A stretch of DNA of 64,000 nt, from NCBI GenBank assembly GCA_965153355.1, contig OZ231126.1:23932001-23996000 (forward strand), read 5' to 3'. A program made the translations under genes and the position numbers. Under the pieces are notes generated by a model that ran no database searches, had not been told where the DNA came from, and saw nothing but the letters and a program-made list of their open reading frames with translations. Origin of the DNA: Flaccisagitta enflata (taxonomy: Eukaryota). How positions within the stretch are numbered: position 1 is the stretch's first letter; the number at the start of each line of letters is the position of its first letter. This document shows positions 6,535 to 55,646 of this stretch, in pieces.

Positions 6535-8260
6535 GCACTCGGAAAGAGCGCTAACTAACAAGTACACAGAGCGCTAACTAACAAGTACACAAAGACTTGA
6601 CTTGGCTGTTCTTTCACATTGGACATAGTTTGACCTTAAGTGTTGTTTGATATTCCATGTCTGAAAGATTGTTGTGCTTTGGACTATAATCGAAATTAGC
6701 ACAGTCGCCAAATCTAACTAGCTGGTAAAATTTTCTCGTGATAAACCTATCGTCATTCATGTTGATGATAACATTATGCCATACTTGCTTTCCTGGTCTG
6801 AAATGACCGAGATTGTTGCCAAAATTCAACTTGGAAAGTCTTCCTCGGGTGTGTGTAAACCTGAGCATATTTTTCATGGCTCTCCCACTCTCATTTGCCA
6901 TCTTCATCTTCTATTTAACGGATTAATCATGCATGGCTATGTGCCCACTGACTTTCTTAAAGGGACCATAACGCCGATCGTGAAAAACTCGCAAGGTGAT
7001 CTGACTGATCCTTCCAACTACAGAGGAATCACATTAAGTTGCCTCCCTGCTAAGCTTTTCGAGTTTGCTATTCAGCTTAAAACAGCCCATTTATTGGAAA
7101 CTGACAACTTACAATTCGGTTTCAAACGAAAAACAAGCACAAATCACGCATTATATTCCTTGAAAACCACTGTTGATCATTTCAATCGAAAAGGATCAAG
7201 CGTATATGTTGCCTTTCTAGATTGCACTAAGGCGTTTGATCGCATCTCTCATTATGGCCTTTTCTCGAAACTCATTCAACGACAGATTCCATTATGCATT
7301 CTAATGTGCCTTATCTACTGGTATCTTAACATGACCTGTAACGTTAGATGGGAAAATGCGCGTAGCAGAGATTTTCGCGTTCCACTCGGAATCAAACAAG
7401 GAGGAATTAACTCTCCCGACTTTTTTGGCTGTTATATAGACGAAATAGCCTCAATTCTTCGAAATGCTGACGTCGGATGCCACTTATACGGCATTTTTCT
7501 TGCAATGATTTTGTTCGCCGACGACCTCTGTCTAATGGCACCAACAAGAAAAGCTCTGGAAAAGATGATCCATCTTTGTGAAAAGTATTGTAACGAATAT
7601 GGGCTTGCTTTCAATGCATTGAAGTCTAAGATATTAGTGTTTTCAAAAGCTAAAGTTGATCATGGCAATCTCGGCCAAATTACCTTAAATGGTAAAGTTA
7701 TTCAATACGTTGAAGATGTCACGTACCTCGGCGCGACCATTGTCAACAACAAAGGATTCGCCTTTTCACCATCAACTGACCTCTCAAAGTTTTATCGCGC
7801 ATCAAACTCAATCTTGAGAGCAACGACTAAACCGAGCGAGGAAGTAATGTTGCAGCTACTTTACTCATGCTGCATCCCCATTCTGACATACGCTTCTGCG
7901 GTTAAAGATTTCTCTTCTCGCCAATTACAAAATTGTACTACGGCTGTTAATGACGCGTTGAGACTGATCTTTGGATTCAACAGATGGGAAAGCGTCAGAA
8001 CTCTTAGAGAATCGTTTGGGTACAAATCTCTGGTTGATTTATTTCATAGAGCCAAAAACAAATTCGATTCCTCACTTCGTTCACATCATAACCCCATCAT
8101 TTCTCATTTAGCAAGAAATCTTGTGTTAGAGCAAGAATAATCTGCGTCGCCTCTTTGTGTCTCTATTGTAGTCATAGATATATTGCGGTGTAATTTCTTT
8201 AATAGCTGTTTGTTTGTGTATGCTTCTGTCGCTAATATTGATGACGAATTAAAAGAGCAT
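6535..8260 (+). mobile_element. Non-LTR retrotransposon (RTE-X/RTE-like LINE) lacking the endonuclease domain
   Basis: RT ORF, short 3'UTR with ATTAAA-like signal near 8248 and AT-rich tail; candidate TSD ATATATCA at 6527-6534 and 8261-8268; the 5' boundary is uncertain (may instead be ~6757). Confidence 0.75.
6776..8140 (+). CDS. LINE reverse transcriptase (C-terminal part of ORF2), 454 aa, uninterrupted
   Basis: Motifs NYRGITL, QFGF, FLDCTKAFDRI, GIKQGGINSP, ILFADDL, FNALKS, YLG; GCHLYG before FADD and C(C)IPILTYA are RTE-X-like; no APE domain upstream (in-frame TAG at 6719). Confidence 0.92.
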   Translation: MPYLLSWSEMTEIVAKIQLGKSSSGVCKPEHIFHGSPTLICHLHLLFNGLIMHGYVPTDFLKGTITPIVKNSQGDLTDPSNYRGITLSCLPAKLFEFAIQLKTAHLLETDNLQFGFKRKTSTNHALYSLKTTVDHFNRKGSSVYVAFLDCTKAFDRISHYGLFSKLIQRQIPLCILMCLIYWYLNMTCNVRWENARSRDFRVPLGIKQGGINSPDFFGCYIDEIASILRNADVGCHLYGIFLAMILFADDLCLMAPTRKALEKMIHLCEKYCNEYGLAFNALKSKILVFSKAKVDHGNLGQITLNGKVIQYVEDVTYLGATIVNNKGFAFSPSTDLSKFYRASNSILRATTKPSEEVMLQLLYSCCIPILTYASAVKDFSSRQLQNCTTAVNDALRLIFGFNRWESVRTLRESFGYKSLVDLFHRAKNKFDSSLRSHHNPIISHLARNLVLEQE

Positions 8261-8290: not shown

Positions 8291-9172
8291 TCATTTCACC
8301 CTTTCTCTGTGTTTTAGCATTTGTCACTTGAGAGTATTTCTGTGACCAAAGACAGATTTACAGACGTCGCATTGCATTGGAAAGGGTTTTCTCCCGTGTG
8401 CGTCTTCATGCGTGATTGTCTCTCGTCTCTTCTTGAGAATACAGATTTACATACAGTATATAGATGAGGTTTTTTCTCCAGTAGTCTTCTCATGTGTCAC
8501 TTTTGGCTTTAGCAAAATCCGATTTACCTATGTGACATTGATATTGCTTTTTGGGCTGCAGCCCCGAAGTGGACAAAGTCCTGTAGAACACAGAGGATCT
8601 GTCCATCCGTAAGTACGTCAATTTGTCCATCCTCAGGGCTTTATCTCCTTTGGGGCCTTTTGTCAAATAGCCCAAATCCAAGCAATATGGCCAAAATCTA
8701 TGCAAAGTGGCCCAAATCCAAGCAAATTGGCTCAAATCTGGTCAGAATCTGAATATCAGAGGCCATTTTACTTGGATTTGGGCCATTATGCTTAGATTTG
8801 GGTCAGATTGCTTGGATTTGGGCTATTTGGCAGAATTTGGGTCAGAATAGGCCCCAAAGGAGACAAATTCTCAAGGGGGATGGATGAACGGACAGACAGA
8901 TGGACCAACGGACGTATGTACATGCGGACGGATGTATAGATGGACAGATTCCCCCTGTGTTCTACAGGACTTTGTCCTCTTCGGGGCCGCTGCCCTGCTC
9001 CCCCTCAACTTTAATCACACACTACTCAAGCAGGGCACGGGTACCGCTGACCACTTACTGCCTTTGGGCTGCTATTTTCCCGTATGAGTGTGCACGTACG
9101 ATTTGAGCTTATGATTGTAAACGAAAGCGTATAGACACGTTACGTTTTAATGGTTTCTTGTCGCTATGCATG
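8291..9172 (-). pseudogene. Degenerate C2H2 (Kruppel-type) zinc-finger array, about 4 fingers
   Basis: Minus-strand fragments MHSDKKPLK.NV, YAFVYNHKLKSYVHTHTGK|KQYQCHIGKSDF, TGEK.HLYTVCKSVFSRRD, MKTHTGENPFQC, DVCKSVFGHRNTLK*QMLKH; stops, frameshifts and an insertion at 8550-9074. Confidence 0.75.
8550..9074 (+). mobile_element. HINE/Helentron-like non-autonomous element, family B (GGGCAGCGGCCCC type)
   Basis: Inserted in a T-run with no TSD; ~45-bp inverted repeat (8553-8598 vs 8950-8995); central ~21-bp degenerate tandem repeats; GACG/GACA microsatellite; 3' GGGTACCGCTGACC tail shared with the copies at 24063 and 60650. Confidence 0.65.
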
Positions 9173-24062: not shown

Positions 24063-24738
24063 AATAGTCGCAAAAGCGTCAGATGGTCAGCGGTACCCGT
24101 TGCCCCTTTGTGAGTGTATGTGAGGGTGTGGTGGTAATAGGGGCAGCGGCCCCGAAGGGGCCAATGACCTATGCTGTTTTTATTTGAGCTTCAAGGCTGG
24201 AATTAGGGCCTGGAGGCTGGGATTTGGGCCTTGAGACCAGAATTTGGGCCTTGAGACCAGAATTTGGGCCTTGGGACCAGGATTTGGGTCTCAAGACCAG
24301 GAATTGGGCCTCAAGGCTGGGATTTGAGCCTCGAGGTTGGGATTTGAACCTCGAGGGACAGGGATTTGAGCCTCGAGGATTTTGAACCTCGAGGGACTGG
24401 GATTTGAGCATTGAGATTTTGAGCTAGGCTGGGGTTTGAGTCTCGAGGCTAGGATTTGAGCCTTGAGGCTGAGATTTGAGCCTCCAGGCTGGGATTTGAG
24501 CCTCCAGGCTGGGATTTGAGCCTCCAGGCTGGGATTTTAGCCTCCAGGCTGGGATTTGAGCCTCCAGGCTGGGATTTGAGCTTCCAGACTAGAATTTGGG
24601 CCTCAAGACTAGGATTTGGGCCTAAGGGGGGGGGGACGGAGAAAAAGAAGGAGGAGAAGGAGGAGGCGAAGAAGGAGAAATTTCCCCTATGTGTAAAAGC
24701 ATAGGTCATCGGCCCCTTCGGGGCCGCTGCCCAAAAAA
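24063..24738 (-). mobile_element. HINE-like family B element with a 20-bp central minisatellite (GGGATTTGAGCCTCCAGGCT)
   Basis: Same termini and internal IR (GGGCAGCGGCCCCGAAGGGGCC) as 8550-9074, opposite orientation. Confidence 0.72.
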
Positions 24739-24898
24739 GGATGGTTTTACCAGCTATGCCCACTTACACATGAAACCACTCAGCTGCAAAGAATCACTAG
24801 AATTCAAAATTACATCAAATGGATTGTGGTTGACTCTTCAAAAAAAATTTAGAAAATTAAAAAGATAAAAAGAATAATTCAAAAAAAAAATTAAGGTA

Positions 24899-35841: not shown

Positions 35842-36319
35842 TCAAGCTGGTTTCATCCACATGTAAGCCTCCGAGAGAATATACCAATCAGATTCACCAG
35901 GGCGACCTTCCCTGTTGAGCCCTATTGAAGGATTACGTTGTTGTGGACACGTCAAACAAATAAAGGCAGCATCCGGTCCCAGCCACCATCCCACACCCCT
36001 TTCAGCAGCATTTCCCCAGTTCACGCCACTGATTTTTCTATCCCACGTTTGAAAAGCCTGCTTATTACTATGTTTCCACACTGGCAACTTCCCAAAATTT
36101 TTTTCGTTGATCAGTTCGCCAAGTTGATATGGAAGTTCCGCAATTTCTGGCCCGACGGTGAAGTTGTCCCATTCAGCTTCGCCAAAAGTCCCCGCCTTTA
36201 AATCCGCAATCTTATCACCCCAATCATCATGAATTCGATCGTATTTCACGCGGACTTTCAACGTCCATCTCCCCTTCGATGATATTCTATGCATCTTCTC
36301 TAGACCGAGCCAAAAAAAT
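35842..36319 (-). CDS. Terminal exon of fibrinogen-related-domain (FReD/FREP-like) gene
   Basis: Acceptor ttatcaaacAG; reads FFWLGLEKMHRIS...GEAEWDNFTVGPE...FQTWDR...GVGWW...EAYMWMKPA*, matching the FReD motifs FWLGLEKIH, AEYDNFxVGPE, FSTxDR, GWW, MxIRP. Confidence 0.88.
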
Positions 36320-36608
36320 CTGTTTGATAAGAAAGCAGGCCAAAAGAAATGGATTTAATTCATTTCGCCGAAATACAACAAAAGATCTTTATCGAAATTT
36401 GATGAATGCTAGAAGAATGATTTCTCCCTACAGTAGAGAGTGTGAGACTACGTATGAAAAGAAAACAGGCAGGCACTACTCCATTAAAATTGCGTACTAC
36501 AATTAGAAGCTAATAATTGTTGTTGTCATTACCCAATATCCATATCCTAAGGGGTTAGCAAACCGGTAGCTAGGCCATATACGTCCTACTTCACTTCTTT
36601 TGTCAGTG

Positions 36609-37450: not shown

Positions 37451-37619
<169 letters not shown>

Positions 37620-37946
37620 TGTGTGTCTGTGTGTCTGTGTGCTCAATATGACTCTTTAATCAAGAACAATGAAGCTTTTTTACTTCCTTGTGGCTATCTC
37701 TTTTGGAGGTTTCAGAAAAAAAATGCCGTTCTTAAAAAGTCAACAAGGCCGGATACGACGGCTACCATAGTCGCGTGCAGGTGGGCAGGGGTAGTGATGG
37801 AGAAGGTCACTGGGGCGTTTGGGCAGCAGCAGTAAGCACAAAAAGCTTTAAAACACCGAAAAAGTAAAAGGGGGACCAACCGACCGACCGACCGACATAG
37901 CGGGATGTTGAGTCGTGTACACGCAATTAAAAAGTGTAATCCTCAC

Positions 37947-38494: not shown

Positions 38495-38845
38495 GCAGAA
38501 TTTAGTCCAAAAGAGCAGATTTGTGGTTTGGGGGGCGGGCTTGAGGCCTTGAGGCCTGAATTGATTTGAGGCCTAGAGGGCAGATTTGAGGTCTGGAGGG
38601 CGGATTTGAGGTCTTGAGAGCAGAATTTAGCTCTCAAGGGCTAAATTGAGGTCTGAAAGGGCTTATTTGAGGGCTCAGAGGGCCAAAATCAGGCCTAAGA
38701 CTGCAGACTTGAGGCTCCAATGGCCAAGGGGGGGGGGACGGAAGGACGGAAGGATGAACGTACGGAAGGACGGATGGACGGACGTCTCGAAATCTCCCCC
38801 TGTGTCCTACAGGACATCGGCCCTTTGGGGCCGCTGCCCAAAAAA
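38495..38845 (-). mobile_element. Truncated HINE-like family B copy
   Basis: GATTTGAGG repeats, GACG microsatellite, CCCTTTGGGGCCGCTGCCCAAAAAA end (the same end is at 1-22). Confidence 0.6.
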
Positions 38846-39217
38846 CGAGTCTTCACAACTCTGCATTAAAAATATATAAAGAAACCCTTTCTTGAATCTT
38901 CTCTCTGTCTCCCCGTTTCTCAGCTCTACGTCCCGCCCTGAGGAGACCCGCCTGTGAGACCCCAAATCAGACTTCCAGTACTTGAATCATGGATCATTGA
39001 ACGAACTCGTTACCCAACCGACCGACCAACCGACAGATGGACACAGCCAGTTATAGAGGTGCTTTGTCGCACCTAAAAAGCATGAAAAGCATATTTCTAG
39101 TCGGCCTAGAGTCTGATGAACTTTCATCTGTCCATACTCCATACACACTACTATATAATATAATGGTGGGCAAATCAAGCTCTATATTAGACATCTGGCA
39201 AAATACGTACTGCTGTA

Positions 39218-42200
39218 GACTGTTAGGAATAGGCCCGGCCGTGGGCGGCGACCAACGGCAGATTATGGCACTTTCTCAGGAGCCTTGCTATTTTGTTTTC
39301 TGAACCAAAACTGGTGCAGAGACCCCCAAAAGGCCAAGAAATGGTTTGATTACCAGAAAAAAAACCAAAGTGGCCCTAGATTACATCTAAATGTACATTT
39401 TTTTACTTGTTTATGCTATCAACAACTATGAAAAGAAATATAAGGAAAAAGTGTTGAAATTGGCTAAAATTGATTTTAAAAATTCCTGACCGCGTAGAAG
39501 TTTCTCTAAAGTGGCTAAATCATCTCTAACATCAATTCTGAGCATAATTAAGCCCTTTTTTGAACCTCAAATAACCTACTTAGTCTGTATTGGATGAATT
39601 TTAACAGCCAGAACTGCGTAATAGAATCACATATTTCACACTGTTTAGGCTCAAAATCCTCAAAAATCTGTATTTGACCCAACAAATTGTTATTTTATTG
39701 CATCAGCAATGGCCCTCCAATGAAGATCCACAAAAAAAATCAACTCAATAACTCAAACCCTTTGCCCTTCAAGGAAAAAACACATGTACCCAAATCTGGT
39801 CTCTGCTCGCTTCCTAACATCCTTATAAGAAGCAACCCTGTACTTAGTTAACTTTGTTAGGTCATTATCTGCTAATGGAGAATAGTTTTTGAGGAAAATA
39901 AGTGCTTATTTGAAAGATCTTTTCGAGTACTTTCATCTGAAAAAAAGAGCTAACTACTATCTCTCTCCGATAAAAAGTTATTGGCTCTCAAAGATGACAC
40001 CTTCTGGAAGCCTCCGATTTTCAAGATTGTCAAAAAATGGCTATAATGGGCCTATTTCAAGCCCTAAAAATACCTTAAAGCATTTAGTTTTTGGCCCAAA
40101 TTTGATTTTTTATCACACGGGAGAATTAGCTAATTCCATTGATAAATAAGCAAAAAATCAAGAAATTCATATTTTGATTAATTTTCCCTCTAATAAGACT
40201 GTTAGGAATAGGCCCGGCTGTGGGCGGCGACCAACGGCAGATTATGGCACTTTCTCAGGAGCCTTGCTATTTTGTTTTCTGAACCAAAACTGGTACAGAG
40301 ACCCCCAAAAGGCCAGGAAATGGTTTGATTACCAGAAAAAAACCAAAGTGGCCCTAGATTACATCTAAATGTACATTTTTTTACTTGTTTATGCTATCAA
40401 CAACTATGAAAAGAAATATAAGGAAAAAGTGTTGAAATTGGCTAAAATTGATTTTAAAAATTCCTGACCGCGTAGAAGTTTCTCCAAAGTGGCTAAATCA
40501 TCTCTAACATCAATTCTGAGCATAATTAAGCCCTTTTTTGAACCTCAAATAACCTACTTAGTCTGTATTGGATGAATTTTAACAGCCAGAACTGCGTAAT
40601 AGAATCACATATTTCACACTGTTTAGGCTCAAAATCCTCAAAAATCTGTATTTGACCCAACAAATTGTTATTTTATTGCATCAGCAATGGCCCTCCAATG
40701 AAGATCCAAAAAAAAAATCAACTCAATAACTCAAACCCTTTGCCCTTCAAGGAAAAAACACATGTACCCAAATCTGGTCTCTGCTCCCTTCCTAACATCC
40801 TTATAAGAAGCAACCCTGTACTTAGTTAACTTTGTTAGGTCATTATCTGCTAATGGAGAGTAGTTTTTGAGGAAAGTCAGTGCTTATTTGAAAGATCTTT
40901 TCGAGTACTTTCATCTGAAAAAAAGAGCTAACTACTATCTCTCTCCGATAAAAAGTTATTGGCTCTCAAAGATGACACCTTCTGGAAGCCTCCGATTTTC
41001 AAGATTGTCAAAAAATGGCTATAATGGGCCTATTTCAAGCCCTAAAAATACCTTAAAGCATTTAGTTTTTGGCCCAAATTTGATTTTTTATCACACGGGA
41101 GAATTAGCTAATTCCATTGATAAATAAGCAAAAAATCAAGAAATTCATATTTTGATTAATTTTCCCTCTAATAAGACTGTTAGGAATAGGCCCGGCTGTG
41201 GGCGGCGACCAACGGCAGATTATGGCACTTTCTCAGGAGCCTTGCTATTTTGTTTTCTGAACCAAAACTGGTGCAGAGACCCCCAAAAGGCCAAGAAATG
41301 GTTTGATTACCAGAAAAAAACCAAAGTGGCCCTAGATTACATCTAAATGTACATTTTTTTACTTGTTTATGCTATCAACAACTATGAAAAGAAATATAAG
41401 GAAAAAGTGTTGAAATTGGCTAAAATTGATTTTAAAAATTCCTGACCGCGTAGAAGTTTCTCCAAAGTGGCTAAATCATCTCTAACATCAATTCTGAGCA
41501 TAATTAAGCCCTTTTTTGAACCTCAAATAACCTACTTAGTCTGTATTGGATGAATTTTAACAGCCAGAACTGCGTAATAGAATCACATATTTCACACTGT
41601 TTAGGCTCAAAATCCTCAAAAATCTGTATTTGACCCAACAAATTGTTATTTTATTGCATCAGCAATGGCCCTCCAATGAAGATCCAAACAAAAAATCAAC
41701 TCAATAACTCAAACCCTTTGCCCTTCAAGGAAAAAACACATGTACCCAAATCTGGTCTCTGCTCCCTTCCTAACATCCTTATAAGAAGCAACCCTGTACT
41801 TAGTTAACTTTGTTAGGTCATTATCTGCTAATGGAGAGTAGTTTTTGAGGAAAGTCAGTGCTTATTTGAAAGATCTTTTCGAGTACTTTCATCTGAAAAA
41901 AAGAGCTAACTACTATCTCTCTCCGATAAAAAGTTATTGGCTCTCAAAGATGACACCTTCTGGAAGCCTCCGATTTTCAAGATTGTCAAAAAATGGCTAT
42001 AATGGGCCTATTTCAAGCCCTAAAAATACCTTAAAGCATTTAGTTTTTGGCCCAAATTTGATTTTTTATCACACGGGAGAATTAGAAATAGCTAATTCCA
42101 TTGATAAATAAGAAAAAAATCAAGAAATTCATATTTTGATTAATTTTCCCTCTAATAAGACTGTTAGGAATAGGCCCGGCTGTGGGCGGCGACCAACGGC

Positions 42201-45200
42201 AGATTATGGCACTTTCTCAGGAGCCTTGCTATTTTGTTTTCTGAACCAAAACTGGTACAGAGACCCCCAAAAGGCCAGGAAATGGTTTGATTACCAGAAA
42301 AAAACCAAAGTGGCCCTAGATTACATCTAAATGTACATTTTTTTACTTGTTTATGCTATCAACAACTATGAAAAGAAATATAAGGAAAAAGTGTTGAAAT
42401 TGGCTAAAATTGATTTTAAAAATTCCTGACCGCGTAGAAGTTTCTCCAAAGTGGCTAAATCATCTCTAACATCAATTCTGAGCATAATTAAGCCCTTTTT
42501 TGAACCTCAAATAACCTACTTAGTCTGTATTGGATGAATTTTAACAGCCAGAACTGCGTAATAGAATCACATATTTCACACTGTTTAGGCTCAAAATCCT
42601 CAAAAATCTGTATTTGACCCAACAAATTGTTATTTTATTGCATCAGCAATGGCCCTCCAATGAAGATCCAAACAAAAAATCAACTCAATAACTCAAACCC
42701 TTTGCCCTTCAAGGAAAAAACACATGTACCCAAATCTGGTCTCTGCTCCCTTCCTAACATCCTTATAAGAAGCAACCCTGTACTTAGTTAACTTTGTTAG
42801 GTCATTATCTGCTAATGGAGAGTAGTTTTTGAGGAAAGTCAGTGCTTATTTGAAAGATCTTTTCGAGTACTTTCATCTGAAAAAAAGAGCTAACTACTAT
42901 CTCTCTCCGATAAAAAGTTATTGGCTCTCAAAGATGACACCTTCTGGAAGCCTCCGATTTTCAAGATTGTCAAAAAATGGCTATAATGGGCCTATTTCAA
43001 GCCCTAAAAATACCTTAAAGCATTTAGTTTTTGGCCCAAATTTGATTTTTTATCACACGGGAGAATTAGAAATAGCTAATTCCATTGATAAATAAGAAAA
43101 AAATCAAGAAATTCATATTTTGATTAATTTTCCCTCTAATAAGACTGTTAGGAATAGGCCCGGCTGTGGGCGGCGACCAACGGCAGATTATGGCACTTTC
43201 TCAGGAGCCTTGCTATTTTGTTTTCTGAACCAAAACTGGTACAGAGACCCCCAAAAGGCCAGGAAATGGTTTGATTACCAGAAAAAAACCAAAGTGGCCC
43301 TAGATTACATCTAAATGTACATTTTTTTACTTGTTTATGCTATCAACAACTATGAAAAGAAATATAAGGAAAAAGTGTTGAAATTGGCTAAAATTGATTT
43401 TAAAAATTCCTGACCGCGTAGAAGTTTCTCCAAAGTGGCTAAATCATCTCTAACATCAATTCTGAGCATAATTAAGCCCTTTTTTGAACCTCAAATAACC
43501 TACTTAGTCTGTATTGGATGAATTTTAACAGCCAGAACTGCGTAATAGAATCACATATTTCACACTGTTTAGGCTCAAAATCCTCAAAAATCTGTATTTG
43601 ACCCAACAAATTGTTATTTTATTGCATCAGCAATGGCCCTCCAATGAAGATCCACAAAAAAAATCAACTCAATAACTCAAACCCTTTGCCCTTCAAGGAA
43701 AAAACACATGTACCCAAATCTGGTCTCTGCTCGCTTCCTAACATCCTTATAAGAAGCAACCCTGTACTTAGTTAACTTTGTTAGGTCATTATCTGCTAAT
43801 GGAGAGTAGTTTTTGAGGAAAGTCAGTGCTTATTTGAAAGATCTTTTCGAGTACTTTCATCTGAAAAAAAGAGCTAACTACTATCTCTCTCCGATAAAAA
43901 GTTATTGGCTCTCAAAGATGACACCTTCTGGAAGCCTCCGATTTTCAAGATTGTCAAAAAATGGCTATAATGGGCCTATTTCAAGCCCTAAAAATACCTT
44001 AAAGCATTTAGTTTTTGGCCCAAATTTGATTTTTTATCACACGGGAGAATTAGAAATAGCTAATTCCATTGATAAATAAGAAAAAAATCAAGAAATTCAT
44101 ATTTTGATTAATTTTCCCTCTAATAAGACTGTTAGGAATAGGCCCGGCTGTGGGCGGCGACCAACGGCAGATTATGGCACTTTCTCAGGAGCCTTGCTAT
44201 TTTGTTTTCTGAACCAAAACTGGTACAGAGACCCCCAAAAGGCCAGGAAATGGTTTGATTACCAGAAAAAAACCAAAGTGGCCCTAGATTACATCTAAAT
44301 GTACATTTTTTTACTTGTTTATGCTATCAACAACTATGAAAAGAAATATAAGGAAAAAGTGTTGAAATTGGCTAAAATTGATTTTAAAAATTCCTGACCG
44401 CGTAGAAGTTTCTCCAAAGTGGCTAAATCATCTCTAACATCAATTCTGAGCATAATTAAGCCCTTTTTTGAACCTCAAATAACCTACTTAGTCTGTATTG
44501 GATGAATTTTAACAGCCAGAACTGCGTAATAGAATCACATATTTCACACTGTTTAGGCTCAAAATCCTCAAAAATCTGTATTTGACCCAACAAATTGTTA
44601 TTTTATTGCATCAGCAATGGCCCTCCAATGAAGATCCACAAAAAAAATCAACTCAATAACTCAAACCCTTTGCCCTTCAAGGAAAAAACACATGTACCCA
44701 AATCTGGTCTCTGCTCCCTTCCTAACATCCTTATAAGAAGCAACCCTGTACTTAGTTAACTTTGTTAGGTCATTATCTGCTAATGGAGAGTAGTTTTTGA
44801 GGAAAGTCAGTGCTTATTTGAAAGATCTTTTTGAGTACTTTCATCTGAAAAAAAGAGCTAACTACTATCTCTCTCCGATAAAAAGTTATTGGCTCTCAAA
44901 GATGACACCTTCTGGAAGCCTCCGATTTTCAAGATTGTCAAAAATGGCTATAATGGGCCTATTTCAAGCCCTAAAAATACCTTAAAGCATTTAGTTTTTG
45001 GCCCAAATTTGATTTTTTATCACACGGGAGAATTAGCTAATTCCATTGATAAATAAGCAAAAAATCAAGAAATTCATATTTTGATTAATTTTCCCTCTAA
45101 TAAGACTGTTAGGAATAGGCCCGGCTGTGGGCGGCGACCAACGGCAGATTATGGCACTTTCTCAGGAGCCTTGCTATTTTGTTTTCTGAACCAAAACTGG

Positions 45201-48200
45201 TACAGAGACCCCCAAAAGGCCAGGAAATGGTTTGATTACCAGAAAAAAACCAAAGTGGCCCTAGATTACATCTAAATGTACATTTTTTTACTTGTTTATG
45301 CTATCAACAACTATGAAAAGAAATATAAGGAAAAAGTGTTGAAATTGGCTAAAATTGATTTTAAAAATTCCTGACCGCGTAGAAGTTTCTCCAAAGTGGC
45401 TAAATCATCTCTAACATCAATTCTGAGCATAATTAAGCCCTTTTTTGAACCTCAAATAACCTACTTAGTCTGTATTGGATGAATTTTAACAGCCAGAACT
45501 GCGTAATAGAATCACATATTTCACACTGTTTAGGCTCAAAATCCTCAAAAATCTGTATTTGACCCAACAAATTGTTATTTTATTGCATCAGCAATGGCCC
45601 TCCAATGAAGATCCAAACAAAAAATCAACTCAATAACTCAAACCCTTTGCCCTTCAAGGAAAAAACACATGTACCCAAATCTGGTCTCTGCTCCCTTCCT
45701 AACATCCTTATAAGAAGCAACCCTGTACTTAGTTAACTTTGTTAGGTCATTATCTGCTAATGGAGAGTAGTTTTTGAGGAAAGTCAGTGCTTATTTGAAA
45801 GATCTTTTCGAGTACTTTCATCTGAAAAAAAGAGCTAACTACTATCTCTCTCCGATAAAAAGTTATTGGCTCTCAAAGATGACACCTTCTGGAAGCCTCC
45901 GATTTTCAAGATTGTCAAAAAATGGCTATAATGGGCCTATTTCAAGCCCTAAAAATACCTTAAAGCATTTAGTTTTTGGCCCAAATTTGATTTTTTATCA
46001 CACGGGAGAATTAGAAATAGCTAATTCCATTGATAAATAAGAAAAAAATCAAGAAATTCATATTTTGATTAATTTTCCCTCTAATAAGACTGTTAGGAAT
46101 AGGCCCGGCTGTGGGCGGCGACCAACGGCAGATTATGGCACTTTCTCAGGAGCCTTGCTATTTTGTTTTCTGAACCAAAACTGGTACAGAGACCCCCAAA
46201 AGGCCAGGAAATGGTTTGATTACCAGAAAAAAACCAAAGTGGCCCTAGATTACATCTAAATGTACATTTTTTTACTTGTTTATGCTATCAACAACTATGA
46301 AAAGAAATATAAGGAAAAAGTGTTGAAATTGGCTAAAATTGATTTTAAAAATTCCTGACCGCGTAGAAGTTTCTCCAAAGTGGCTAAATCATCTCTAACA
46401 TCAATTCTGAGCATAATTAAGCCCTTTTTTGAACCTCAAATAACCTACTTAGTCTGTATTGGATGAATTTTAACAGCCAGAACTGCGTAATAGAATCACA
46501 TATTTCACACTGTTTAGGCTCAAAATCCTCAAAAATCTGTATTTGACCCAACAAATTGTTATTTTATTGCATCAGCAATGGCCCTCCAATGAAGATCCAC
46601 AAAAAAAATCAACTCAATAACTCAAACCCTTTGCCCTTCAAGGAAAAAACACATGTACCCAAATCTGGTCTCTGCTCCCTTCCTAACATCCTTATAAGAA
46701 GCAACCCTGTACTTAGTTAACTTTGTTAGGTCATTATCTGCTAATGGAGAGTAGTTTTTGAGGAAAGTCAGTGCTTATTTGAAAGATCTTTTCGAGTACT
46801 TTCATCTGAAAAAAAGAGCTAACTACTATCTCTCTCCGATAAAAAGTTATTGGCTCTCAAAGATGACACCTTCTGGAAGCCTCCGATTTTCAAGATTGTC
46901 AAAAAATGGCTATAATGGGCCTATTTCAAGCCCTAAAAATACCTTAAAGCATTTAGTTTTTGGCCCAAATTTGATTTTTTATCACACGGGAGAATTAGAA
47001 ATAGCTAATTCCATTGATAAATAAGAAAAAAATCAAGAAATTCATATTTTGATTAATTTTCCCTCTAATAAGACTGTTAGGAATAGGCCCGGCTGTGGGC
47101 GGCGACCAACGGCAGATTATGGCACTTTCTCAGGAGCCTTGCTATTTTGTTTTCTGAACCAAAACTGGTACAGAGACCCCCAAAAGGCCAGGAAATGGTT
47201 TGATTACCAGAAAAAAACCAAAGTGGCCCTAGATTACATCTAAATGTACATTTTTTTACTTGTTTATGCTATCAACAACTATGAAAAGAAATATAAGGAA
47301 AAAGTGTTGAAATTGGCTAAAATTGATTTTAAAAATTCCTGACCGCGTAGAAGTTTCTCCAAAGTGGCTAAATCATCTCTAACATCAATTCTGAGCATAA
47401 TTAAGCCCTTTTTTGAACCTCAAATAACCTACTTAGTCTGTATTGGATGAATTTTAACAGCCAGAACTGCGTAATAGAATCACATATTTCACACTGTTTA
47501 GGCTCAAAATCCTCAAAAATCTGTATTTGACCCAACAAATTGTTATTTTATTGCATCAGCAATGGCCCTCCAATGAAGATCCACAAAAAAATCAACTCAA
47601 TAACTCAAACCCTTTGCCCTTCAAGGAAAAAACACATGTACCCAAATCTGGTCTCTGCTCGCTTCCTAACATCCTTATAAGAAGCAACCCTGTACTTAGT
47701 TAACTTTGTTAGGTCATTATCTGCTAATGGAGAATAGTTTTTGAGGAAAATCAGTGCTTATTTGAAAGATCTTTTCGAGTACTTTCATCTGAAAAAAAGA
47801 GCTAACTACTATCTCTCTCCGATAAAAAGTTATTGGCTCTCAAAGATGACACCTTCTGGAAGCCTCCGATTTTCAAGATTGTCAAAAAATGGCTATAATG
47901 GGCCTATTTCAAGCCCTAAAAATACCTTAAAGCATTTAGTTTTTGGCCCAAATTTGATTTTTTATCACAGGGAAGAATTAGAAATAGCTAATTCCATTGA
48001 TAAATAAGAAAAAAATCAAGAAATTCATATTTTGATTAATTTTCCCTCTAATAAGACTGTTAGGAATAGGCCCGGCTGTGGGCGGCGACCAACGGCAGAT
48101 TATGGCACTTTCTCAGGAGCCTTGCTATTTTGTTTTCTGAACCAAAACTGGTACAGAGACCCCCAAAAGGCCAGGAAATGGTTTGATTACCAGAAAAAAA

Positions 48201-49642
48201 CCAAAGTGGCCCTAGATTACATCTAAATGTACATTTTTTTACTTGTTTATGCTATCAACAACTATGAAAAGAAATATAAGGAAAAAGTGTTGAAATTGGC
48301 TAAAATTGATTTTAAAAATTCCTGACCGCGTAGAAGTTTCTCTAAAGTGGCTAAATCATCTCTAACATCAATTCTGAGCATAATTAAGCCCTTTTTTGAA
48401 CCTCAAATAACCTATTTAGTCTGTATTGGATGAATTTTAACAGCCAAAACTGCTTAATAGAATCACATATTTCACACTGTTTAGGCTCAAAATCCTCAAA
48501 AATCTGTATTTGACCCAACAAATTGTTATTTTATTGCATCAGCAATGGCCCTCCAATGAAGATCCACAAAAAAAATCAACTCAATAACTCAAACCCTTTG
48601 CCCTTCAAGGAAAAAACACATGTACCCAAATCTGGTCTCTGCTCGCTTCCTAACATCCTTATAAGAAGCAACCCTGTACTTAGTTAACTTTGTTAGGTCA
48701 TTATCTGCTAATGGAGAATAGTTTTTGAGGAAAATCAGTGCTTATTTGAAAGATCTTTTCGAGCACTTTCATCTGAAAAAAAGAGCTAACTACTATCTCT
48801 CTCCGATAAAAAGTTATTGGCTCTCAAAGATGACACCTTCTGGAAGCCTCCGATTTTCAAGATTGTCAAAAAATGGCTATAATGGGCCTATTTCAAGCCC
48901 TAAAAATACCTTAAAGCATTTAGTTTTTGGCCCAAATTTGATTTTTTATCACACGAGAGAATTAGAAATAGCTAATTCCATTGATAAATAAGAAAAAAAT
49001 CAAGAAATTCATATTTTGATTAATTTTCCCTCTAATAAGACTGTTAGGAATAGGCCCGGCTGTGGGCGGCGACCAACGGCAGATTATGGCACTTTCTCAG
49101 GAGCCTTGCTATTTTGTTTTCTGAACCAAAACTGGTACAGAGACCCCCAAAAGGCCAGGAAATGGTTTGATTACCAGAAAAAAACCAAAGTGGCCCTAGA
49201 TTACATCTAAATGTACATTTTTTTACTTGTTTATGCTATCAACAACTATGAAAAGAAATATAAGGAAAAAGTGTTGAAATTGGCTAAAATTGATTTTAAA
49301 AATTCCTGACCGCGTAGAAGTTTCTCTAAAGTGGCTAAATCATCTCTAACATCAATTCTGAGCATAATTAAGCCCTTTTTTGAACCTCAAATAACCTATT
49401 TAGTCTGTATTGGATGAATTTTAACAGCCAAAACTGCTTAATAGAATCACATATTTCACACTGTTTAGGCTCAAAATCCTCAAAAATCTGTATTTGACCC
49501 AACAAATTGTTATTTTATTGCATCAGCAATGGCCCTCCAATGAAGATCCACAAAAAAAATCAACTCAATAACTCAAACCCTTTGCCCTTCAAGGAAAAAA
49601 CACATGTACCCAAATCTGGTCTCTGCTCGCTTCCTAACATCC
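39218..49642. mobile_element. Composite DNA-transposon tandem array: 11 x ~604-bp long direct repeat plus 10 x ~374-380-bp spacer (KolobokP-like architecture, non-autonomous)
   Basis: Repeat starts at 39218, 40197, 41175, 42159, 43143, 44127, 45104, 46088, 47072, 48055, 49039; each repeat runs GACTGTTAGGAA...TTCCTAACATCC; TGTA at 39214-39217 and 49643-49646. Confidence 0.85.
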
Positions 49643-49660
49643 TGTAAGTTCATCAATAAC

Positions 49661-49843
49661 CTGATCCCTGCATGATCTTCTTTTTTATTTCCTCGAGACG
49701 TTCTCCCGTCCTCGCTTCCGTTTCATTCATTCGATCTTCCAGTTGATTCAAACGTTCTTGAAGTCCATCAAAACGTTCCTTCATCTGACTGTTGGTCTCG
49801 TTCAACCGAATCTCCATGGATCCAAACCGATCTTCAAGTTGTC
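49661..49843 (-). CDS. Coiled-coil exon of the FReD gene
   Basis: (CT)n-AG acceptor; GQLEDRFGSMEIRLNETNSQMKERFDGLQERLNQLEDRMNETEARTGERLEEIK heptad pattern; phase 1-1 if the donor is CAG|GTTATT, which joins the 38079 exon in frame; donor uncertain. Confidence 0.72.
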
Positions 49844-49929
<86 letters not shown>

Positions 49930-50045
49930 CAGCTCGTAAACAAGCTCCTCCGCGTATACGTGTACGTGCGCGTGTACGTGTGTGCGTACCTCAGGACGTA
50001 TGCGTGTGTAAATGAATAAAAGGGACTCGTACCATGGTGCGCTAC

Positions 50046-50253
50046 CTATATGTGCTTCCACGCGGTCAAAGTGCTTTGTCACGGTCTCAGTAAAATTGGC
50101 GAATTTCCTTTCAAACTTGGCTGTCCATTCGTTAAGATCCACTTGTGCCGGGAAAATGCTTTGCACGACTGCAAACGACTGACCACCAAGGTCCCGCTTC
50201 GAGCGTCCATCCACGACGTTGTCTGCATGGATTTTTTGGTGGATTGATTTGAT
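50046..50253 (-). CDS. Upstream exon of the FReD gene (5' boundary unknown)
   Basis: ...DGRSKRDLGGQSFAVVQSIFPAQVDLNEWTAKFERKFANFTETVTKHFDRVEAHI; RSKR furin-like site; donor ATAG|GTAGCG joins the next exon in frame; in-frame TGA at 50254-50256 just upstream. Confidence 0.6.
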
Positions 50254-53993: not shown

Positions 53994-55646
53994 GTAATAT
54001 TGCGTCCGAGTCTTTCTCTTTCTCTTTCTCTTTCTCTCTCTCTCAGGGCAGGTCATAGACGATCCCGCTTTGAAAGGGCTGGTCGCTCGCTAAGATTGTT
54101 CGCTCACTCCGCTCACTCGCTCTGCTTTGCTCACTCCGCTCAAAATGGCGCCAAGCGCGATCTTTCATCTTTTTTTGTTTAGAAATGACATTCCTACAAA
54201 ATTGGGTGTGAAGTTGAAGTAATTTCTTAAGTTTATTCAAACTTTATCTAACTTTGCAAGCTTGTTACTTAGTTGTTTTTCAACCGATTTAGACGAAATT
54301 CATGATGAAAAGAAAGATTCTTTTGTGTTCTTCAAAATGGCGCCAAGCGCGATCTTCTGTCCTTTTTTAATCGCATGCACGCGACTCTACAACCCGCTTT
54401 GTCGGTTGGTCGGTTGGTTACACTTTATTTTTTTGCAATTTTATTTCTTTGTCCTTACTGCTCCTGCCCAAATGGTCTGGTGACCTCAAACATGGCCCCT
54501 GCCTACCCACATGCGACTTCGGTAACCGTGTATCCGGCCTTGTTTATTTAGAAATGACATTCTTCCAAAGTTGGGGGAGAATTATCAAAAATTTACTCAA
54601 ACTTCATCTGACTTTGGGCACTTGTTTCCCAGTTGTTTTGTCACCAATTTAGATAAAATTCAGGTTGAAAAGAAAGAATTTTATGTGTTCTTCAAAATGG
54701 CGCCAATCGTGATCTTTTATCTTTTTTCGTTTAGAATTAGTGTGCATACCAAGATAAAGGGGTATTTTAGCTTTTATGCTTGTGAGATGATAATCTTTTA
54801 CGAGCAAAATCTGAGATGCGCGACATTGAAATTGCGTCCTAACTCCCTTCCCCGACCTCGGGGACGTAAATTTAAATATTTAGAAAGAACAAGGCCGGAT
54901 ACGGCCAATACCAGTCGCGGATGGGTGGGCAGGGGCGGAAATGCATGTTTCTCCACTTTTCGACTCATGCTCACGGACCGACGGACGGACGGACAAAGCC
55001 TCGTATAGAGTCGCTTGTCCGCGACTAAAAACACTCCAGAGTGGAGTAGCCAATTGGATAGTATCGGTGTAACTGACCTTGTTGATTTTTGACTAAGTCA
55101 TAGGCTGTTTCTTTTTTTTATCGCGTCAACGCGCGTTGTCATGGAGTGAAAATGAAAACAGATTTGAATTGGTCATACTCTGGGGATATGACATGCAGCT
55201 CACGTTACCTCACGTCGCCAAAGTTGAGCCATAACAACCCTTTATTTTAAACTTCCTTAATTCTTTTATTTTTTACTCAAATTTTTTGGAGAAAAAAAAT
55301 CACCCAGACATGATTTTGGCCAAAAATGAATGATATTCATTGCATTTGAACAATATTCTTCCATATTTGTCGCGTGGGATCTATTCTCACGCAGGGAGAA
55401 AATTCCGACATAGCATTTTCTCTCGCTCTTTCGAGGAACAAACCTAAGTTGACTTTCCTACTAAGGAGATAATAAAGTTTCTAATTTTTTTATTTCCTAG
55501 AGAAATATTAAGACATGACTCACAAAAACTTTCATTGAAATCTAAAAGAGAGCTTCAAATTTATGCTTCGCTGACACTGGCCATAATTACCTCTGCCCAC
55601 TCGCGTGTTGTTGAGTTTTTCATGCATCTGTCCATGTTAATCAAAT

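Follow-up and report, generated by a model that had tools for sequence, protein, structure and literature searches.

Anatomy and boundaries of the array

The DNA considered here is a window of 64 kb, positions 23,932,001 to 23,996,000 of contig OZ231126.1 on the forward strand, and our subject is the 10.4-kb block of tandem repeats at positions 39214-49646 within it. A repeat search recovered 11 in-register copies with a start-to-start spacing of 977-984 bp, and the block consists of 11 modules (603-605 bp) alternating with 10 spacers (373-380 bp), with a complete module at both ends. The evidence supports reading it as a single composite, non-coding DNA-transposon insertion in which long terminal direct repeats (LTDRs) of ~604 bp alternate with internal spacers (INT) of ~380 bp, most likely a new non-autonomous member of the published KolobokP-like type. 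The features of the array are as follows.

39214..39217 (+): left TGTA copy of the target-site duplication
39218..39822 (+): LTDR module 1, 605 bp, with ends GACTGTTAGGAA and TTCCTAACATCC; an edge unit and the most divergent one (5-8 differences from the others)
39823..40196 (+): INT spacer 1, 374 bp, without the 6-bp TAGAAA insertion
40197..40800 (+): LTDR module 2, 604 bp
40801..41174 (+): INT spacer 2, 374 bp
41175..41778 (+): LTDR module 3, 604 bp
41779..42158 (+): INT spacer 3, 380 bp
42159..42762 (+): LTDR module 4, 604 bp
42763..43142 (+): INT spacer 4, 380 bp
43143..43746 (+): LTDR module 5, 604 bp
43747..44126 (+): INT spacer 5, 380 bp, with ends TTATAAGAAG and TTATTAGAGG (the latter as reverse complement) forming an 8/10 inverted repeat
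44127..44730 (+): LTDR module 6, 604 bp
44731..45103 (+): INT spacer 6, 373 bp, of the short type, as are spacers 1 and 2
45104..45707 (+): LTDR module 7, 604 bp, identical in sequence to module 4
45708..46087 (+): INT spacer 7, 380 bp
46088..46691 (+): LTDR module 8, 604 bp, identical in sequence to module 6
46692..47071 (+): INT spacer 8, 380 bp
47072..47674 (+): LTDR module 9, 603 bp
47675..48054 (+): INT spacer 9, 380 bp
48055..48658 (+): LTDR module 10, 604 bp, identical in sequence to module 11
48659..49038 (+): INT spacer 10, 380 bp
49039..49642 (+): LTDR module 11, 604 bp, the right terminal module
49643..49646 (+): right TGTA copy of the target-site duplication

Exact searches found the left 12-mer GACTGTTAGGAA eleven times, starting at 39218, 40197, 41175, 42159, 43143, 44127, 45104, 46088, 47072, 48055 and 49039, and the right 12-mer TTCCTAACATCC likewise eleven times, with ends running from 39822 to 49642. 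In order, the modules measure 605, 604 (seven times), 603, 604 and 604 bp, and the spacers 374, 374, 380, 380, 380, 373, 380, 380, 380 and 380 bp. The original prediction, of an array with a ~984-bp period that begins and ends on a complete ~604-bp module, was confirmed base for base.

Each module carries its own terminal inverted repeats. The left end GACTGTTAGGAA and the inverted right end GGATGTTAGGAA match at 10 of 12 positions, nine of them contiguous, giving an imperfect inverted repeat of 12 bp, and all 11 modules have 5'-GA...CC-3' (RR...YY) termini. At its outer edges the array reads ...TACTGC-TGTA|GACTG on the left and CATCC|TGTA-AGTTC on the right, so that TGTA forms a 4-bp duplication round the whole array. 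All ten internal junctions read ATAA|GACTG and CATCC|TTAT, which are inverted, and there is no duplication round the internal modules. The boundaries are good to +/-1 bp, because the outer and inner junctions have one extra base in common (A on the left, T on the right). The imperfect 12-bp ends with purine-purine termini, the TGTA on both sides of the array and the lack of duplications at the internal modules had all been claimed beforehand, and all three stand.

The spacers have inverted ends of their own. The first ten bases, TTATAAGAAG, and the reverse complement of the last ten, TTATTAGAGG, form an 8/10 inverted repeat (chance ~0.0016), for example at 43747-43756 and 44117-44126, and the arrangement is the same in every spacer. 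Once module and spacer ends are combined, the internal junctions are symmetric over 22 bp (18/22), a symmetry that the outer host flanks do not have.

The outer anatomy is not what random placement would produce. Against a background formed by the rest of the 64-kb window, which is rich in microsatellites, 2,000,000 random 604-bp placements gave inverted ends with at least 10/12 matches at a frequency of 3.9e-4 and 4-bp flank identity at 7.5e-3, and both features together in 0 of the 2,000,000. The block also has the properties of a satellite, with head-to-tail monomers of 977-984 bp, 10.6 units, a mean pairwise difference of 0.7-0.9%, high abundance and homogenised units.

Copies of the family beyond the array

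A blastn search of the window with module and spacer (word size 7, E<=1) gave 31 high-scoring segment pairs. Ten of these lay outside the array, all <=34 bp long with E>=0.003, and no further copy of module or spacer was detected by blastn elsewhere in the window. The array flanks had no match in the array interior, nor was a paralogous empty site for them found within the window; the spacer was thus found to be unlike the host flanks in both searches, as originally predicted. Motifs resembling the inverted ends with <=1 mismatch occur five times outside the array, which is at chance level.

Outside the window the family is abundant. A search of sequence-run indexes found the stretch in 24 runs from 16 studies among the matches listed, with 0.73 of the sampled words present in one run of organism A and 0.21-0.36 in the other listed runs, which are mostly marine, seawater or estuary metagenomes. 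Four runs (X1, X2, X3 and X5) were aligned to positions 38800-40196 of the window. In X1 the summed contig depth reaches ~182,000 for the module and ~127,000 for the spacer, set beside 81-125 in bins of unique flank, or, in unique-depth equivalents, about 1,800 for the module and 1,260 for the spacer. The module-to-spacer depth ratio is 1.43 in X1, 1.37 in X3, 1.13 in X2 and 1.08 in X5; these figures come from summed contig depths, not copy numbers, and are to be read as 'order 10^3' only. The spacer comes close to the module in abundance, which argues that the family consists mainly of module-plus-spacer tandems and that the spacer is not host DNA. Roughly, then, the source organism holds ~10^3 copies, mostly in tandem and behaving as a ~984-bp macrosatellite.

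Individual contigs add detail at the junctions. In two metagenomes a contig bridges the spacer end and the module start (X2 record 9 and X5 record 24), and a 183-bp contig of X1 (record 2), at a single-copy depth of 95.7, spans the left junction without mismatch. The latter is not independent support, because X1 may be the assembly's own sample. X3 record 16 carries 69 unaligned bases to the left of 39217, which could be diverged INT; the unique flank bins of X3 stand at zero depth, and such holes prove nothing. Among the loose ends in these runs, the best-supported ones listed all fall in hyper-abundant repeats of the flank and not at other flanks of the module; 375 further ones lie outside that listing. 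One X3 contig joins 39522 to 39811, skipping 288 bp, and could perhaps be a module derivative with an internal deletion from another place in organism A; of the two sides of the joint, the shorter measures 20 letters.

Predicted proteins gave a second view of copies elsewhere. An 89-aa open reading frame (ORF) of the spacer had one representative match among 1.84 billion proteins, P0122 (161 aa), which crosses the same spacer-to-module junction at 145/161 identity; the INT-LTDR link is therefore conserved in a diverged copy. A 72-aa junction ORF matched two proteins, P0124 and P0125, the second of which is internal to the module. In P0124 (88 aa, from a 1,180-bp contig) the first 32 residues are unrelated to the spacer or to the window flank, and homology begins exactly at TVRNRP, which corresponds to module base 2. 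P0124 therefore represents an independent copy with the same 5' terminus and a different left flank. Judged from this predicted protein, the 5' terminus of the module appears to be a true element boundary in other places as well. Used as exact patterns, the 5' end, the 3' end and a conserved stretch from the interior had 0 matches in metagenome, prokaryote-genome and viral collections.

These data bear on whether the spacer could simply be host DNA caught between two insertions. Tandem transposon arrays have a documented source of this kind (McGurk & Barbash 2018, in the available part of that account), and here it would mean that two 604-bp miniature inverted-repeat transposable elements entered host DNA independently at a distance of ~380 bp and that unequal exchange came afterwards. 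Such an origin predicts a duplication for each module and a host-derived spacer, and neither was found: TGTA/TTAT and ATAA/TGTA do not pair, the spacer stands ~1,260-fold over unique depth, and its junction with the module recurs in P0122. The model is thus already contradicted and we regard it as extremely improbable. The spacer is instead supported as a part of the element, because its abundance is near that of the module and because the spacer-module junction recurs in P0122.

Relation to KolobokP and history of the array

The type to which we assign the array was described by Kojima & Bao 2022 (Mob DNA 13:24, PMC9587614). In the portion of that account available to us, the LTDRs of KolobokP begin and end in inverted repeats of their own, 11-18 bp long and perfect or imperfect, and have 5'-RR...YY-3' termini. 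By the same account, target duplications of 3-5 bp usually lie on both sides of solo LTDRs and of (LTDR-INT)n-LTDR multimers, target preference is not strong, and the authors term the layout 'unlike any other DNA transposons'. The array corresponds in its composite layout, inverted ends, termini and 4-bp duplication. Neighbouring units share one LTDR, the inverted ends measure 12 bp, the RR...YY termini are present throughout, and at this one locus TGTA gives a duplication within the published range. Published non-autonomous multimers, such as KolobokP-4N1_CorFlu or KolobokP-7N2_CorFlu (PMC9587614), are alike, as far as described there, in their direct-repeat modules with short imperfect inverted ends and RR...YY termini, in the single short duplication round the multimer, in the LTDR shared between neighbouring units and in their non-coding INT.

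What the original prediction had said of Kolobok and KolobokP agrees with the available text of PMC9587614, and its proposal of one non-coding composite insertion held up as to structure. The novelty that it implied was overstated, since (LTDR-INT)n-LTDR multimers with target duplications are explicit for KolobokP and 2.4-kb satellites annotated as Kolobok are listed for the Pacific oyster, in the parts of these sources that we refer to.

A number of observations weigh against this assignment and the history that we build on it. The unit holds no transposase, His-Me nuclease or coding remnant, its longest ORF being the 89-aa frame of the spacer; as the sole match of this frame is a further copy of the repeat itself, there is no trace of a transposase or nuclease remnant. 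A 57-aa ORF across the 3' boundary had no match in the protein search, and the abundance estimates hold only to an order of magnitude. A single target duplication is seen, and it is TGTA rather than the TTAA to which duplications of classical Kolobok elements are specific. Duplications of 4 bp are, besides, not unique to Kolobok. At 603-605 bp the LTDR falls between the published classes of ~450 and ~660 bp (PMC9587614), and with an INT of ~380 bp the implied monomer is 1,588 bp (1.6 kb), below both the 2.4-2.6 kb of the two CorFlu families and the 1,738-3,261 bp (1.7-3.3 kb) quoted for non-autonomous families in C. gigas. Internal modules are flanked by the inverted ATAA...TTAT, and the INT ends accordingly read TTAT...ATAA (8/10 over 10 bp), whereas INT starts and ends with TATA in the description of KolobokP-1_MeMe. 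In most families covered by the available account, solo LTDRs are at least as numerous as multimers, whereas the depth ratio of ~1.1-1.4 suggests that multimers dominate here. KolobokP is reported there from seven animal phyla, with none in arthropods or vertebrates. The identity of the duplicated target does not count against KolobokP, because KolobokP has no strong target preference.

Some of these points would suit an array of the same kind from another 4-bp-duplicating or undescribed superfamily, in which a KolobokP-like layout had arisen independently. The LTDR length outside both published classes and the TGTA duplication in place of TTAA fit such an origin, as do the inverted ends of the INT itself, which do not figure in the available description of KolobokP, and our placement of the array in the Kolobok superfamily is one that its architecture, and not its proteins, would suggest. 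On the other side, the RR/YY termini, the 12-bp inverted ends, the 4-bp duplication and the combination of LTDR inverted ends with multimers all match KolobokP, and Kojima & Bao (PMC9587614) present this layout, in the text available, as unique among DNA transposons. We consider a different superfamily unlikely, yet the most credible of the alternatives.

Other tandem systems show partial likenesses. The C. gigas satellitome (PMC8268682) lists CgiSat13 and CgiSat16, with 2,414-bp monomers annotated as DNA/Kolobok; they too are long-monomer tandem repeats tied to Kolobok by annotation, with a monomer of 2.4 kb against 0.98 kb here, a comparison made by their available description only. A 2025 review of transposon-derived satellites makes no mention of Kolobok. 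Tandem arrays of long terminal repeat (LTR) retrotransposons, including terminal-repeat retrotransposons in miniature (TRIM), have the same (repeat-internal)n-repeat order, one duplication and exchange between terminal direct repeats, but they belong to the retroelements, and their LTRs have no inverted ends other than TG...CA, in contrast to the 12-bp inverted ends and the 4-bp duplication of DNA-transposon type found here. The hobo and Bari1 arrays of Drosophila (McGurk & Barbash 2018) likewise turn a DNA transposon into a tandem array that grows by unequal exchange; as described in the available text they start from two insertions with their own duplications, whereas here one outer duplication is seen and the spacer lies within the element. 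Composite transposons of bacteria, as well as the pseudo-composite or translocatable units of IS26, an analogy drawn in PMC9587614, resemble the array in that two direct, end-bearing modules bracket a passenger and that the module or the whole is mobile. The bacterial modules differ in that they encode the transposase, where nothing is coding here.

Two further origins were considered for the repeats. A Helitron-like rolling-circle origin was dropped, as the element terminates in inverted repeats and has a 4-bp duplication; its ends are presumably unlike the Helitron end signature. Rfam and tRNA scans of the window gave no match, and there is therefore no sign of a SINE-type (short interspersed nuclear element) or tRNA-derived module.

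The differences between units carry a record of how the array was formed. Variation is confined to 12 of 605 columns in the modules and 16 of 380 in the spacers, six of the latter representing one 6-bp TAGAAA indel, and two units differ on average by 4.1 per 605 in the modules (M) and by 3.3 per 380 in the spacers (S). The most divergent units are at the edges (M1, M10=M11, S1, S9 and S10), and those in the centre show little or no difference from one another (M4=M7, M6=M8 and S3=S4=S5=S7=S8). Divergent edges round a homogeneous middle are the pattern expected from unequal exchange within the array. All four combinations of states occur at 61 of 105 informative site pairs, many of the sites being linked, so that they amount to ~8 independent ones; the units have therefore recombined or converted.

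The same differences argue against the array or its copy number being an artefact of assembly. That concern arises because the contigs that were aligned are short. The unit differences are, however, structured: the spacers fall into three classes by length, some substitutions are peculiar to single units, and certain modules are identical in pairs (M4=M7, M6=M8, M10=M11). In addition, the left-junction contig stands at single-copy depth, and tandem-junction contigs are found in unrelated metagenomes. We therefore consider an artefact very unlikely.

Comparison with the family at large indicates a common ancestor for the units. The X1 family majority differs from unit 1 at 20 positions (13 in the module and 7 in the spacer), and at 15 of these, 11 of the module positions and 4 of the spacer positions, every unit in the window has the minority state. 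The eleven units therefore share a founder that differs from most of the family. One site adds to the points against a simple history: at column 290, M1, M10 and M11 have T and M2-M9 have the family-majority C. Such a pattern is not expected if a single monomer simply expanded, so that conversion from other copies, or another route, must be invoked. Spacers S6 and S9 also have one family-majority state each.

These last observations raise the question of whether the array grew where it stands. The multimer routes proposed in the available text of PMC9587614 are unequal crossover, integration of LTDR-INT circles ('translocatable units') and nuclease-induced unequal repair. A pre-formed multimer or rolling-circle concatemer might have transposed whole, or a solo LTDR might have been extended by LTDR-INT circles or by ectopic conversion. 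Circle integration is thus among the routes already listed as possible, and both the private T at column 290 in M1, M10 and M11 and the family-majority states of S6 and S9 are compatible with input from other copies. The divergent edges and near-identical centre, by contrast, are expected of in-place unequal exchange, and the 15 minority states common to all units point to one founder, although these states and the edge pattern together would still be compatible with the transposition of a homogeneous multimer. We give such routes a slight chance.

We favour, with moderate confidence, a new non-autonomous KolobokP-like family of which one copy inserted at TGTA and then lengthened at that site through unequal exchange. 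An autonomous relative would provide the transposase in trans; this enzyme would act on the outermost module ends, and a monomer (LTDR-INT-LTDR) or short multimer would be pasted into TGTA, duplicating the 4 bp. Unequal sister-chromatid or allelic exchange, together with gene conversion between LTDRs, would then enlarge and homogenise the array to (LTDR-INT)10-LTDR. During this growth the outer duplication would stay intact, and the internal modules would never gain duplications of their own. Both the mobilisation in trans and the order of insertion and expansion are steps that we infer.

Surrounding sequence and biological meaning

The array may lie within an intron or just downstream of a gene. 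Directly to its right, on the reverse strand at 49653-50253, are two open frames, one a clear coiled coil, ending 10 bp from the array, and 3 kb to its left, at 35842-36354 (-), a frame has a weak match to the fibrinogen C-terminal domain (E = 2e-4, below the Pfam cut-off). Further away, a 472-aa open frame at 6722-8140 (+) contains a reverse-transcriptase domain (RVT_1, E = 5e-26) and probably belongs to a non-LTR retrotransposon. Its relatives are up to 96% identical and come nearly all from metagenome assemblies, consistent with a host that is common in environmental samples. Taxonomic leads from this frame were weak, pointing to Arthropoda or Chordata, and the fibrinogen-like frame gave none of use.

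The microsatellite load of the window is extreme, with tracts such as (GT)95 at 37451-37641 and (GA)40 at 49846-49926, and most of its long open frames are translated di-, tri- or tetranucleotide repeats. In the left flank of the array, two stretches (38800-38846 and 38988-39081) reach a summed contig depth of ~10^7 in runs of organism A, against ~10^2 in neighbouring unique sequence. Both follow a (GGAC/GGAA)n or (CCGA)n-like microsatellite and end in a short A run, with A-rich loose ends beyond 38844 and 39079-39080, and both resemble 3' tails of SINE-like retroposons that are hyper-abundant. Similar pieces, recognised by the likeness of their ORF translations, occur elsewhere in the window, for example at ~8850-9080, 24450-24860 and 54800-55100.

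The composite multimer layout with one short duplication is already known from KolobokP, and in this respect the array mainly confirms a published pattern. What is new is the abundance of the family, its presence in many marine metagenomes, the junction conserved in P0122, the different flank of P0124 and the evidence on unit history. Together they make the array a clean, young and base-resolved case of a cut-and-paste transposon seeding satellite-like DNA.

A broader joint reading can be put forward, which we hold to be rather improbable. A KolobokP-type or convergent element, with the smallest INT yet seen, would have turned into a macrosatellite with a period of ~984 bp and about a thousand units; the host would be a planktonic animal abundant in the sea and possibly from none of the seven KolobokP phyla. 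The arrays of the element would still be moved whole by their outermost ends, and the inverted ends of the INT (the 18/22 symmetry) would mark a circle-based or inside-out step. Should the host indeed belong to a group from which KolobokP has not been published, or should arrays be mobile as a whole, the finding would extend a lineage described only in 2022. The family, with its short monomer and many copies, would in that case also offer a tractable system in which to distinguish unequal crossover from nuclease-induced repair and circle integration.

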